A stretch of 64,000 nucleotides of DNA from Planctomycetota bacterium (GTDB lineage: Bacteria > Planctomycetota > JAJSAM01 > JAJVHW01): NCBI GenBank assembly GCA_965248445.1, contig CBDFJG010000004.1, positions 512,001-576,000 on the forward strand, in the 5' to 3' direction. Every line of letters begins with the position of its first letter. The first letter of the stretch is position 1. Position numbers and translations under genes: made by a program. Positions 23,465 to 36,633 of this stretch are shown here, one piece after another. Under the pieces are notes generated by a model, which was not told the DNA's origin, did not search any database, and saw nothing but the letters and a program-made list of their open reading frames with translations.

Positions 23465-23708
23465 CAAGGCAAACATGAGGCACGCAACGCGAGACCGCGG
23501 TCTCATCATCGCGGCGCAACGACTGCCGTAAACCACCACCCCGACTGCATCTCCGGTTCGAGGTCGACCCCCAGCCCATCCGCGATTCTATTGATGTAGT
23601 TGGTGCGCCGCGAGCCACACTGCATCCAACACGATCCAACGCGCTCCAGCCTGGACCCCTCCGCAGCCGACTCCATGTGCGTTTCCTTAAGGCACACGTA
23701 GGGCACAC
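23465..23708. mobile_element. att-like junction 1 (left arm 23465-23485, core 23548-23602, right arm 23688-23708)
   Basis: Core encodes NYINRIADGLGVDLEPEM on the minus strand; arms CAAGGCAAACATGAGGCACGC and TAAGGCACACGTAGGGCACAC. Confidence 0.85.
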
Positions 23709-23880
23709 ACGGCGTTAGCGCAGATAGGGCGTTGCGCGCCCCGCTCCGGAGCGTTCACTGAGTGCGCATGGCGTCGAATCGTACCGACGGTGACGAGCCT
23801 TGCGCACTCGGAGGTCTAGCCGTTGATCCGCGGCATCCGGGAGCGGATACTCGCGCTTGAGGTTTCCGTGCGAAAGGGGA

Positions 23881-24978
23881 ATGCACATGACGATGCGAAC
23901 AACCGTGACCGCCGCCTTGGTGGTGCTTCTGACGGCACCGGCGCTGGCCGACACGATCCGCGTGCCGGGCGACCACGCCACGATTCAGGCGGCCGTGGAT
24001 GCCGCCGGCAACGGCGACGAGATCCAGATCAGGGGCGGCACGTACGCGGAGGCCATCGTCGTGATGGACACGGCCGACCTCACGATCATCGGCAAGCGCG
24101 GCGCGACCATCGAACCGCCTGGCAGCGACGAAGGGATCACCGCGCAGAACTGCGTCGGTCTCGTCATCAAGGGACTGCGGTTCGAGGGCGGAGGACGCGG
24201 GATCTTGGTGTCGGGGTGCGACAACGCGCGCATCGAGAAGTGCCGATCGAGCGACAACCAGAACGGGGGGTTCGAGATCCGAGCCTCGCAGAACGTGACC
24301 GTCACGAAGTGCAGGGTCGAGGGGGGCCAGGGCGAGGGAATCAAGTTCGGTGACGGCAACCCGGACCAACAGGTCACTGGCGGTGAGGTCTCGAAGTGCC
24401 GCGTGCGCGACGTCAGCGGGGATGGATTCCGCATCAATGCCAACGGTTCCACGATCTCGAAGTGCAGGTGCGACGGTGCCGAGAGCGGATTCGATGTCGA
24501 GGATGCGAGCCAGGGAGTCACGGTCGAGAAGTGCCGCTCGTTCGACGTGTCCGACGAGGCGTTCAAGACCAACGCCCCCGGGACCAACTTCGTCAAGTGC
24601 CTCGCGAAAGACGCCGACGAGGAGGGCTACGACGTCGAGGCCGACATGTGCGAAGTCGAGAAGTGCAAGGCGATCGACTGTCGCCGCGGAATAGAGTTCG
24701 AGGGAGTGACGAGCGGCATGGCCGCGAACTGCAAGCTGATCAAGTGCCGGGAGGTCGGCGTCGCCCTGTTCGGAGCAACCGGGGTCACGGTCGAGGGCTG
24801 CCTCTCGAAGAAGGCCGGTGACTTCGGGTTCCACGTGCGCGACGACTCGAACACCAACACCCTTACGAAGAACAAGGGCGTCAAGAACGGCGAGGCGGAT
24901 CTGCGAGACGAGAACGGCGAAGGATCGAACACGTACACGGACAACAAGTTCAAGGTCGAGGACTTCTCGAGTCCCTAA
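23881..24978 (+). CDS. Secreted right-handed parallel beta-helix repeat protein
   Basis: Signal peptide, IRVPGDHATIQAAVDAA..GD.I.IRGGTY, repeated xxKC beta-helix turns; AAAGGGGA upstream. Confidence 0.85.
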   Translation: MHMTMRTTVTAALVVLLTAPALADTIRVPGDHATIQAAVDAAGNGDEIQIRGGTYAEAIVVMDTADLTIIGKRGATIEPPGSDEGITAQNCVGLVIKGLRFEGGGRGILVSGCDNARIEKCRSSDNQNGGFEIRASQNVTVTKCRVEGGQGEGIKFGDGNPDQQVTGGEVSKCRVRDVSGDGFRINANGSTISKCRCDGAESGFDVEDASQGVTVEKCRSFDVSDEAFKTNAPGTNFVKCLAKDADEEGYDVEADMCEVEKCKAIDCRRGIEFEGVTSGMAANCKLIKCREVGVALFGATGVTVEGCLSKKAGDFGFHVRDDSNTNTLTKNKGVKNGEADLRDENGEGSNTYTDNKFKVEDFSSP

Positions 24979-25136
24979 CAAGGGCGAGTGAGCTCCGGGC
25001 GCTCCTCCGGGTCGCTACTCAGCGCGGCTCGTCCCCCTCACGAGAGGAGCCTCCATGCCCCGTTCCCACGGCAGACCTGCTGCGAACCGCCATCGGCGCG
25101 CGAGCAGCGCAACGACTGACCCGCAGGGACATCTCC

Positions 25137-33816: not shown

Positions 33817-33907
33817 AGCGCGACCGCGTGCTCCGGGAACGCGGCGGCTTCCGCGCGCCGCGAGCAGCCCCGCCTGACGGCGCGGGTAGTGGTTACGTGG
33901 TGAAGCG

Positions 33908-36175
33908 TCAGGTCGTGACGGAACTGGCGGGGCGGAAGCCGAGGTCGGCGTTCCGGCCCTCCGGCGAGAGCCTGAAGCGGATCGCCGCCCGCGCGAACCC
34001 GACGGTGCTGACCCAGCACCCGCCGCGGATGACGCGCGACACGGAGGCCGTGACGTGCGGCTCGAACAGCGAGGTCGTCCAGTCCCAGAACGAGCCCGCG
34101 GCATCGACCATGCCGTGCACCGACGTCGCCGTCGGGAACGCCCCCACCGGCTCGGGCTGGGTGGGCTCGTCGCGGGCGTCACGGTTCTTGCACAGCGAGG
34201 GGTGCTGGAGGTCGCCCCACGGGAACCGCCGGCCGTCCACGCCGCGTGCGGCCTTCTCGCGCTCCTCCTCCGTCGGCAGCCGCCACTCCCGGCCCGTCAC
34301 GTTCGTCTTCCACTCGCAGTACGCCACGGCGTCGTGCCACGAGACCCCCATGACCGCGATCGCGGTCTCGAAATCCTCTCCGTACGCCGCAACGCAGCGC
34401 TCGCGCGCCGCGCCCTCGACGATCACCGGGAGCGTGCGGTAGACACCGTCCTCGTCGCGCTCCATGTACGCACCATCGCCCTTGGTGTTGGGGAGGAGAG
34501 CCGCCGCAGCTTCGATGCCCTCGTCCCCTTCGACGGCCGCGAGAAACTCCCCCCACTCCCCGAACGTCACCGGCGCCCTGCGGATCAGGAAGTCGGGCAG
34601 CTCCTTCGTCGTGGTGTCCTTGCCCTCGCCGTACACGAACGGCCCGGCCGGCACGTAGACGAACTCCTCCCCGATGTCCTCCTCGGTCCGCATGTGCACG
34701 GCGCCCTTCCATACGCGGCCGCGCGTGATGTGGATGGGGTATCGCACGTCGCGGAAGCCGTCTTTGCGGAGCACGCAGAGGTAGCTGCCCATCGGGAGCG
34801 CCGTCGCCGCGACCGGCGTCGCCCCGAGCGAACGCTCGCCCGTCGGGACCAGCACACCGTCCTGTTCCTCGAAGCGAGAGAGCAACACCTCCGCACCGGA
34901 CGGATCGGAGGTGAGCACCAAGGTGCCGTCCCCGGCGATGAGTCCTTCGTGGCGCCCGTCGTCGTATCGCGTGAGCATCGTCAGCGCGTGTGCCGCATCG
35001 TCCGCAGCACCCTGAAGCTCGGTCTCGGCCAGTCGCGTCGCCCACAGGTCGCCGAGCGCGCAGGTCGCCGTGGTGTTCTTCTCCTCGGCGGCGAGGGCTG
35101 CATTGAGCAGCGCAGTCGCGTCGGCGAAGGCCACCGCCATGTCGCGCCGCAGGTCAGTGGCCACCCGACGGGCGATCAACAACGGCCGGGTCTGCGAGAC
35201 GGGCTGCCAGGGCTTGAAGTCGCCCTTCATCGCGTCGGCTGCCTTCTCCGCGGCGTCGGCCTCGGTGCGCAGCGACTCGTAGCGCCGCAACTGGTCGATG
35301 CCCTGCTTCGCCAGCGCCTCCGCCTCCTTGTGCTTGCGCGCCCGCTCCGCGCGGCCGTCCAGCCAATCGCGCAGGGACGCACCGAACTCGCGCGCGGTGT
35401 CCGGGCGATCTGCGGGAGCGCGCGACATGGCCTGCTCGCACAACTCTGCGAGCGGCTCGGGGACCGGACGGCGGGGATTGCGGGTCCGCACGTCGGCGAA
35501 CTCGCCCGCGCGCACCTTCGCGAGCAGTTCCATCCCCCCACCCTCGTACGCCGGGTGCAGCGCCAGCATCTCGTAGAGCAGGCACCCGAGCGCGTACACG
35601 TCGCTACGCCGGTCGGACGGCGCGCCCGAGGCCTGCTCGGGGCTCATGTAGGGGATCGTGCCCTTGATCGCGCCATCGACGGTCATGAGCGCGTCGATGC
35701 CCGCAGTGCGCACCGTGTCGGTCGCATCGTCCGCGAAGTCGTCGTACTCGTCGAACTCCCCCTCGTCCCCGGTGTCCGCGGCGACCTTCGCGATGCCCCA
35801 GTCCATCACGTGGACCTCGCCGTACTCCCCCAGCATGATGTTCTCGGGCTTGATGTCGCGGTGGATCACGCCCTTCTCGTGCGCGAAGTGCACCGCCTCG
35901 CAGATGCGTTCGAGGATCGATGCCAGCTTGTGCAGCGTGTACTCGCGGCGCAAGGTCTTCGACCCGACGAAGAGATCCTTCAGCACCTCGGCGAGCGTGC
36001 GTCCACGCACCAGCTTCATCGTGAAGTAGATCTGTCCCGAGGACTTGATCCCGATGTCGTGCACCGGCGGGATGCCGGGGTGCTCGAGCTGGCTGGTCGC
36101 CTGCGCCTCCGCCACGAACTTGAGGCGGTGCGCCGGCTGCCCCGCCCAGTCGTCGCGCAGGACCTTCATCGCCAC
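33908..36175 (-). CDS. Ser/Thr kinase - PEGA-like - FGE-sulfatase fusion, 5'-truncated (likely pseudogene)
   Basis: VAMK, HRDIKPEN, DWG and a C-terminal FGE domain; no Gly-rich loop in frame upstream of DLRRQVAMK. Confidence 0.8.
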   Translation of the reverse strand: MAMKVLRDDWAGQPAHRLKFVAEAQATSQLEHPGIPPVHDIGIKSSGQIYFTMKLVRGRTLAEVLKDLFVGSKTLRREYTLHKLASILERICEAVHFAHEKGVIHRDIKPENIMLGEYGEVHVMDWGIAKVAADTGDEGEFDEYDDFADDATDTVRTAGIDALMTVDGAIKGTIPYMSPEQASGAPSDRRSDVYALGCLLYEMLALHPAYEGGGMELLAKVRAGEFADVRTRNPRRPVPEPLAELCEQAMSRAPADRPDTAREFGASLRDWLDGRAERARKHKEAEALAKQGIDQLRRYESLRTEADAAEKAADAMKGDFKPWQPVSQTRPLLIARRVATDLRRDMAVAFADATALLNAALAAEEKNTTATCALGDLWATRLAETELQGAADDAAHALTMLTRYDDGRHEGLIAGDGTLVLTSDPSGAEVLLSRFEEQDGVLVPTGERSLGATPVAATALPMGSYLCVLRKDGFRDVRYPIHITRGRVWKGAVHMRTEEDIGEEFVYVPAGPFVYGEGKDTTTKELPDFLIRRAPVTFGEWGEFLAAVEGDEGIEAAAALLPNTKGDGAYMERDEDGVYRTLPVIVEGAARERCVAAYGEDFETAIAVMGVSWHDAVAYCEWKTNVTGREWRLPTEEEREKAARGVDGRRFPWGDLQHPSLCKNRDARDEPTQPEPVGAFPTATSVHGMVDAAGSFWDWTTSLFEPHVTASVSRVIRGGCWVSTVGFARAAIRFRLSPEGRNADLGFRPASSVTT

Positions 36176-36495
36176 CTGGCGGCGCAGGTCCTGCGGGCGT
36201 GAAGGCTCCCGCCGCGGCGGCCGCGACGGCCTCCGTTTCGCCGGGCGTCGCCGCCCGCGTCATCACGCTCATCCGCCCGAACGCCGATCGATTGGCCATG
36301 GTGCTGCCTCCCGCGGAACCGGGGAGGAGACTACCCGTCCGGAAGCGATGTAACCCCGGGGGCTCTCGGGAGTCCTTACTCCTGACGCCGTCGACCGGGC
36401 GGCGCTCGTAACCAAGCGAGGTGGAGTAGCAGGTCGCATGCGGAGACGCTGATGAACTGGCGCTCACACCACGACGCGGCGCGCGCTCCAATCCC

Positions 36496-36633
36496 TAAGG
36501 CACACATAGGGCACACGGAACGCGCCTGCCGTCTCAGTTCCCCGGTGACGCGCTCGGCGTAAGTCCTTACTGCAGCTTCATCTCCGGCTCGAGGTCGACA
36601 CCCAGACCGTCCGCTATTCTATTAATGTAGTTG
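36496..36633. mobile_element. att-like junction 5 overlapping the 3' end of the intact AhpD/CMD gene (arm 36496-36516, core 36579-36633)
   Basis: Perfect arm 62 bp beyond the core; the core is in frame with the gene. Confidence 0.88.

Follow-up and report, generated by a model that had tools for sequence, protein, structure and literature searches.

Integrase-less units stacked at the 3′ end of an AhpD-like selenoprotein gene in a Planctomycetota bacterium are probably decayed tyrosine-integrase elements

A contig of a Planctomycetota bacterium (CBDFJG010000004.1, assembly GCA_965248445.1) carries, at the 3′ end of an AhpD-like gene for a predicted selenoprotein, a tandem array of DNA units delimited by copies of the end of that gene. 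A stretch of 64,000 nt of this contig (the window) was analyzed, with the array examined at window positions 23,465 to 36,633 and compared with the rest of the source genome (G000, 92% complete) and with seven other genomes of its family (G001 to G007). The stack was probably built by successive insertions of tyrosine-integrase elements at the 3′ end of the AhpD-like gene, followed by deletions that would have turned the residents into cis-mobilizable elements (CIMEs).

The repeated gene ends, hereafter cores, were located with a repeat finder at five places, in a single orientation and with start-to-start spacings of 1786, 4312, 4010 and 2923 bp (Table 1). These values matched the initial annotation of the sequence exactly, except that one of the five copies described there as 55 bp long, core 3, extends over 51 bp. 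The minus-strand translation common to all five, (N/E)YINRIADGLG(V/G)DLEPEM, is the C-terminus of the AhpD-like gene, and the cores contain the final 17-18 conserved codons of this CxxU gene, in agreement with the earlier description of the core as its last 18 or so codons. Pairwise identity among the window cores was 80-92%. Over the 10 pairs, 68 codon differences were synonymous and 4 non-synonymous, all four reflecting one V-to-G change, and third positions made up 12 of the 15 variable columns; the silent share expected of random changes is 22%. Because the divergence is almost confined to silent sites, the window cores are, judging by their codons, gene ends that evolved separately and not the outcome of recent local duplication. 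Such silent divergence would be expected if every core had once served as the replacement end of the gene. Outside the array, the genome gave only weak paralogue matches. The eighth residue of the 17-codon core (G, C or A) was constant within a genome and varied between genomes (G000 to G006), and element-borne gene ends seem to track the residue of their host.

An origin of the repeats by local duplication, RecA-type recombination or misassembly, with no site-specific recombinase involved, would fit a window that has no recombinase gene. It is at odds with copies that are diverged at silent sites and enclose unrelated cargo, and with the fixed arms and spacings described below, which recur in other genera. 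The assembly was also checked against short-read contigs, which drop rare variants, from four runs made on a single sample that may be the source of this DNA. They tiled the region almost without differences, and single contigs spanned four of the five cores without any difference, which answers for these four the question of misassembly that had been raised at the outset. At core 2, which no single listed contig spans, two contigs overlap by 29 bases within sequence that is exactly the same in core 5, so that they neither confirm nor contradict this junction. Duplication or misassembly is largely refuted by these observations, and we consider it highly improbable.

A second set of repeats surrounds the cores. 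A tandem direct repeat with a period of 11, GTGTGCCCTA-TGTGTGCCTTA, containing GTGTGCC, is present at five positions, together with a degenerate copy and a half site (Table 1), and a genome-wide scan of the source genome allowing up to two mismatches found this tandem arm confined to the array. An 89-bp arm-to-core spacing was seen at nine of the 12 tabulated non-gene cores (three in the window, two in G004 and one each in G005, G001, G006 and metagenome contig L080); of the other three, two were shortened and one was without an arm. This count leaves out core 3, with its katG fusion, and the degenerate core of C15. A downstream spacing of 63 bp was found at window cores 1 and 5, in G006 and in G004, and the aligned junctions become identical to the gene from the same C-AACTAC onward. 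The 89-bp spacer carries paired CAGTGGG repeats ten bases apart and a TTAC motif follows the core; by analogy with lambda, these may represent excisionase-type and IHF-type sites.

Tandem direct arms distant from the core are the layout of lambda-type sites, and the repeats are likely to be integrase-binding arms. This reading is independently supported because the arm pattern abuts tyrosine integrase genes (PF00589) in viral contigs: a scan returned 13 loci, at six of which the motif lies directly beside such a gene, as the check suggested with the initial annotation had anticipated; the other seven matches are terminase-adjacent and belong to one family. Among G005, G006 and the metagenome contig, the 89-bp spacers were 90-92% identical, whereas the gene is 65-75% identical between genera. 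Among 401 genomes of the phylum, the exact arm pattern occurred in four, three of them members of the family and the fourth with a match within a gene. Look-alike arms of period 10 in the source genome (C2:696561 and C3:489260) were rejected, as no core is present there. An Rfam search of the junctions identified no family, with two chance-level miRNA matches only, and no inverted repeat was present at the junctions among the 25 longest listed.

The window contains no recombinase gene, as had been noted from the start: none of the 22 PF00589, seven PF00239 and one PF07508 matches of the genome falls within it, and a profile of the candidate integrase family (P0002-P0010, PF00589, 382 aa) found nothing there. 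The closest tyrosine recombinase gene lies ~145 kb from the array. No intact integrase was found in any of the 12 core-to-core units of six genomes, and the window units yielded no Int, Xis or Rep relic. One G004 unit retains residues 1-140 of a tyrosine integrase, frameshifted and cut; nine longer homologues of this relic in metagenomes are 64-81% identical to it, and most are ~380 aa long with PF00589. The best match of the source genome to candidate P0002 was 36% identical, and the 401 genomes of the phylum gave only matches of 36-38%. Searches with the relic and with P0002 identified no cognate integrase in G000, G001, G002, G003, G006 or G007, and the integrase queries gave no confirmed viral locus and no plasmid match. 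The combined arm and core pattern matched one 2.8-kb metagenome contig without an integrase and no viral locus, and the core pattern likewise matched no viral locus. Within 2.5 kb of the 22 PF00589 genes of the source genome, these arms were absent, the sole related arm, at integrase L016, belonging to the rho system described below. The initial proposal of a hotspot served in trans by a tyrosine recombinase was therefore upheld in part: the arm matches and the relic support insertion by a tyrosine integrase, and the lack of these arms at all 22 genes and the low candidate-family match speak against a dedicated enzyme acting in trans.

The same results bear on two other candidates for the enzyme acting at the site, a serine recombinase and an integron-type integrase that works on single-stranded attC sites. 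Serine recombinases are encoded elsewhere in the genome, and the ssrA arrays of Dehalococcoides, some members of which are integrase-less, use a serine integrase as described in PMC3146451. The tandem direct arms distant from the core, their position beside PF00589 genes in viral contigs, the tyrosine integrase as the only recombinase relic in any unit and the lack of inverted repeats among the longest listed at the junctions make such an enzyme a very unlikely candidate.

A related system at rho indicates what the parents may have looked like. An intact 5.7-kb element at the 3′ end of rho in G005 (L107:9090-14806), small cargo genes included, encodes a tyrosine integrase, an HTH_17 protein and a Rep_trans initiator and has TGTGCC tandem arms like those of the array; an integrase 53% identical to that of G005 also follows rho in G004 (L106). 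In the source genome, locus L259 (C3:252184-257450) comprises rho-type cores ending in SHIK and a stop codon, integrase L016 and then integrase-less units of 765 and 3325 bp, with arms of the sequence TTGTGCCTA. The rho gene itself lies on another contig (L260, C4, rho end near 1441650) and is followed by three GTGTCCCA repeats that resemble those preceding L016, and the two loci are probably the two ends of one element split by rearrangement or assembly. As read from these sequences, the rho array shows the classical pattern, an active element with decayed units, in the same genome as the AhpD array. The sequence CATACCGAGACCGG near the rho-type cores was dropped as a part of the core, as it occurs away from cores too. 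Another integrase of the same clade starts directly after a protein gene ending in FEEN and a stop codon (L105:10300-11107), which we take to be vWA-like, suggesting that the clade targets several protein-gene ends.

Table 1. Features of the array and its target gene (window positions; att designations are putative).
Feature	Position	Strand	Basis
Target gene, AhpD-like/peroxidase-related (TIGR01926) predicted selenoprotein, 195 aa, CxxU	36567..37154	-	TIGR01926, Pfam CMD
In-frame UGA, codon 82 (CFY-U), predicted selenocysteine	36909..36911	-	homologues, tRNA-Sec, SelA
Candidate SECIS hairpin, 9-bp stem, loop CGUGC, 24 nt past UGA	36871..36893	-	predicted fold
Core 1, functional 3′ end of gene, then element-type tail (putative attL)	36579..36633	-	repeat, translation, junction alignment
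Tandem arm GTGTGCCCTA-TGTGTGCCTTA, 63 bp downstream of core 1	36496..36516	-	
Unit A, 2923 bp, both arms; Ser/Thr kinase-PEGA-FGE gene 33908-36299(-)	33656..36578		
Tandem arm, 89 bp upstream of core 2 (putative attR side, unit A)	33796..33816	-	
Core 2, one amino-acid change, V to G	33656..33710	-	translation, codon comparison
Half arm (one repeat) downstream of core 2	33597..33606	-	
Unit B, 4010 bp: HicB-like 33169-33381, HicA 33378-33569, NDH-2 31496-32830(-), VOC from 30391(+) with frameshift near 30676, PfpI 29792-30322(-)	29646..33655		
Internally deleted katG-like 3′ end relic	29697..29786	+	80-83% to two segments of gene at G000:C2:257.6-258.0 kb
Core 3, 51 bp, identity from TACAT on	29646..29696	-	junction alignment
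Tandem arm, 63 bp downstream of core 3 (by position)	29563..29583	-	
Unit C, 4312 bp: type III PKS 26100-27224, methyltransferase 27221-27949, FAD oxidoreductase 27946-29115	25334..29645		
70-codon relic in unit C, start of kinase-WD40 gene	29234-29443		full gene whole in G006 unit
Tandem arm, 89 bp upstream of core 4	25474..25494	-	
Core 4, without arm downstream	25334..25388	-	arm scan
Unit D, 1786 bp: beta-helix protein 23884-24978(+), truncated radC-like fragment 25137-25310	23548..25333		
Tandem arm, 89 bp upstream of core 5	23688..23708	-	
Core 5, most distal copy, then element-type tail	23548..23602	-	junction alignment
Start of fifth unit, degenerate arm 23465-23485, 63 bp downstream of core 5	23380..23529	-	
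Isolated 49-bp copy, 92%, of sequence just inside unit C proximal arm	18715..18763	+	

The four core-to-core units of the window keep their cores, with putative attL- and attR-type sites, and differ in how much else remains (Table 1). Unit A has a kinase-FGE gene with a deletion and a frameshift near its start relative to a G005 homologue, and the gene is 84% identical at the DNA level to that in an arm-bounded G005 unit (L100). Unit B has a half arm proximally and no distal arm; there, a relic of a gene that we take to be katG from the C-terminal motif of its homologue is fused directly to core 3 in place of the 89-bp spacer and arm. Unit C has both full arms by position and looks composite. 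Unit D lacks the proximal arm, and its radC-like fragment is cut at core 4. Domain matches identified the beta-helix protein, the type III polyketide synthase (PKS) trio, PfpI, VOC, NDH-2 and kinase-FGE cargo as initially annotated. Of the HicBA pair, HicA was identified and the HicB-like open reading frame (ORF) had no Pfam or NCBIfam match, and the proposed radC fragment gave a weak NCBIfam match only (E 0.004), sharing 55% identity with a RadC-like ORF at another place in the genome. No transfer gene was found in a Pfam scan of the window cargo. The missing arms, truncated cargo and relics make deletion-eroded units, one of the options first suggested, the best fit. A degenerate arm and 150 bp that are 87% identical to G005 L100:153-302 lie past core 5, and therefore a fifth unit begins left of 23548; neither the far end of this unit nor the original end of the host gene was found. 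The isolated 49-bp copy at 18715 is possibly a relic of an older unit. At window position 30676, short-read contigs of three runs have one extra base in the VOC gene, and the frameshift there may be polymorphic or an assembly error.

The AhpD-like gene was present in all seven other genomes of the family, and extra cores lie behind it in five of them, giving totals of two cores in G001, G003 and G005 and three in G004 and G006. Cargo differs among these arrays and includes kinases, toxin-antitoxin pairs, ATPases and a primase-helicase, and G007 looks empty over the available 4.7 kb, so that the predicted hotspot of variable content, with empty or differing alleles among relatives, was recovered. 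In G002 the gene is followed by an element-type tail and half arm (L056:3457-3520), as in the G004 unit with the integrase relic, and no second core or integrase was found in the 12 kb to the contig end. Five order-level genomes had one core each, some with little downstream DNA. A wider genome collection yielded 105 loci. Flanks were available for 80, of which 70 belong to taxa other than the family; the downstream sequence reaches 4 kb or more at 44 of the 70, and a second gene-end copy was found at one of the 70. Because extra cores are found in five of seven family genomes as against one of 70 loci elsewhere, and the arm pattern is almost family-only, the hotspot is family-wide and, within the searched data, family-specific. 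The copy outside the family (L142:2060-2576) is shorter, lies 460 bp downstream of the gene and has no arms. The 12 core-to-core units measure 1.8-12.3 kb, with no near-identical pair among them.

A further array with this att type was found in G005 (L100:153-17058), on a contig without the AhpD-like gene; it comprises two cores, arms, a beta-helix gene, kinases, an ECF sigma gene, kinase-FGE and several toxin-antitoxin genes. G005:C15 was rejected as a second allele of the G005 gene locus, as the downstream backbones differ. Between G000 and G005, fourfold-site identity was 0.62 for kinase-FGE, 0.64 for rho and 0.57 for the target gene, and a recent cross-genus transfer of the kinase-FGE unit is thus unsupported.

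In the mechanism that we favor, a small integrative element would arrive with an attP site consisting of a tandem arm, the 89-bp spacer, the gene end of ~18 codons, the 63-bp spacer and a second arm, and would recombine near CAACTAC at the 5′ edge of the core. The gene would gain a new in-frame end, and the previous end would be displaced outward to become the next junction. The parents would be of the rho-element type (Int, HTH_17, Rep_trans), and resident units would then lose the integrase, parts of the arms and cargo. If a cognate element returned, it could still excise arm-complete units such as unit A, in cis or in trans. Crossover position, arm function, order of events and integrase identity are what we infer from sequence comparison. 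For a CIME origin by deletion, the evidence consists of the integrase relic in one of 12 units and the intact rho element, which resembles an integrative and mobilizable element (IME) and has similar arms, with no parent seen at the AhpD-like gene.

Several observations weigh against such decay. In none of the eight family genomes was an intact element with an integrase found at the AhpD-like gene, and the autonomous parent is thus unseen. Unit A, the one next to the gene, carries both arms and lacks an integrase. Another gene stands between the G004 relic and its core, ~1 kb away, and the relic may stem from a different element. Among the 15 joints listed of 39 in contigs of one sample, none represented core-to-core excision or a circle; a joint from 23568 to 25365, with 10 foreign letters and a 22-base side, was not counted as an excision. 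Finally, integrase-less units may be old and maintained instead of quickly decaying, because the arm-then-kinase-FGE layout without an integrase is also found in G005, another genus, at a silent divergence like that of rho.

These points invite a different explanation, in which the units are purpose-built non-autonomous cassettes with full att arms, moved in trans by a helper element or a host integrase as an integron-like pool. The absence of an intact integrase from all units, arms and spacings that are exactly kept between genera with spacers more alike than the gene, the small gene-proximal unit A with both arms and the kinase-FGE layout common to G005 would all suit it. We nevertheless consider it unlikely, given that an arm is missing wholly or by half in three of the four window units, that broken cargo is frequent (kinase, radC, katG and kinase relics), that a G004 unit kept an integrase relic, that no cognate integrase was found in six genomes and that the units, unlike integron cassettes, vary widely in size with none near-identical. 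Only tentatively can it be proposed that a family-wide standing pool of integrase-less cassettes docks at protein-gene 3′ ends (AhpD-like, rho), with arms under selection across genera and shuffling in trans by Int-Xis-Rep_trans helpers; if true, such a pool would be an integron-like system of double-stranded att sites, trading kinases, PKS and toxin-antitoxin modules. Decayed CIMEs and trans-mobilized cassettes differ in degree, because an arm-complete CIME would be excisable by a returning element.

The target gene scored 122.9 bits against TIGR01926 (cut-off 81.8) and also matched Pfam CMD. One in-frame TGA was present in 36 of 37 homologue matches from 61 genomes, and the source genome encodes tRNA-Sec and SelA; together with the TGA at codon 82, these findings support the call of an AhpD-like CxxU selenoprotein made in the initial annotation. 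The candidate hairpin of the bacterial selenocysteine insertion sequence (SECIS) type folds no better than shuffled sequences (z 0.61). AhpD-like CxxU selenoproteins are a described family (COG2128, PMC1088965), and the protein, likewise CxxU with TIGR01926, shows no difference from the family as outlined there. Two more AhpD-like genes of the source genome (C4:366421-366864 and C1:361475-361993) have an in-frame stop at the same position, and no duplicated ends of these genes were seen with the query used.

Further features of the window include an inverted repeat, GGGGTCAGGACA...TGTCCTGACTCC, at 25645-25725 in the non-coding stretch preceding the PKS gene, which is presumably REP-like, and ~34 copies of an 18-bp unit at 8256-9077, within an ORF with a weak sigma-70 region 2 match. 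An FGE-domain gene at 9410-10435 is 67-77% identical to the FGE part of the unit A cargo, and a further paralogue of that part (68%) lies at G000:C4:1617705-1619801.

Integrons hold ordered arrays of small recombinase-less cargo units at one locus, with attC palindromes and intI adjacent. The AhpD array is likewise an ordered set of recombinase-less cargo units at one locus; it differs in having no intI, in junctions that are gene-end copies with distant direct arms and in multi-gene units in both orientations. If arm-complete units do move in trans, the array would inform estimates of how often cassettes are exchanged in an integron-like way in the absence of intI. IMEs are defined by their own integrase and excision functions, and the window units have neither. 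The G005 rho element is similar to IMEs with a tyrosine integrase and a MobT/Rep_trans initiator as presented in PMC5704250, and an IME of this type is the likely parent type of the array units.

The system was first thought to be of an undescribed kind. However, tandem integrase-less units at protein-gene 3′ ends correspond to CIMEs as treated in PMC7563491 and PMC5704250, that is, decayed elements that keep their att sites and are without recombination and transfer genes (PMC7563491), for which a three-step accretion model has been put forward (PMC5704250). The protein-gene target and the missing integrases were thus already known, and the target gene and lineage appear to be new. No paper on a Planctomycetota case or on the AhpD-like gene as an integration site was found in the literature searched, which lacked most subscription papers, and island databases may list it; the word AhpD is absent from the main text of PMC12884075, whose supplements, like the TIGER database, may list the target.

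As in CIMEs, the array is a tandem at the 3′ end of a gene that stays intact, without recombination or transfer genes and with cores kept. In Streptococcus salivarius, the 3′ ends of rpmG, rpsI, fda and rplL carry two or three CIMEs in tandem, with sizes of 1.2-13 kb (PMC7563491), compared with 1.8-12.3 kb here. Streptococcal CIMEs of the ICESt1/ICESt3 type are likewise tandem, att-bounded and cargo-bearing at protein-gene 3′ ends, with variable order and number (PMC7563491, PMC5704250). They differ from the AhpD array in target, phylum and number, a selenoprotein gene in Planctomycetota here carrying four to five units instead of two to three. A further difference counts against a CIME origin, since in the cases covered by PMC7563491 streptococcal CIMEs are always distal, beside an IME or an integrative and conjugative element, whereas the AhpD array has no active partner and an integrase-less proximal unit. 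The ssrA tandem islands of Dehalococcoides, 15 of which lack the integration module and were proposed to be CIMEs, are likewise multi-unit arrays at one gene end; as reported in PMC3146451, they differ in their tmRNA target, the serine recombinase DsiB, a module that is mostly kept and a 20-bp direct repeat. The present analysis yields an att site with well-defined limits (core, 89-bp and 63-bp spacers, arms) and the candidate integrase family, which together could serve as a gene-preserving insertion tool, and it describes the end of a selenoprotein gene as an integration hotspot that is occupied in the majority of the family's genomes. As the evidence stands, the array is a further example of a known process, and it brings uncultured Planctomycetota into the range of CIME-type accretion, which has mainly been described from streptococci and Dehalococcoides.

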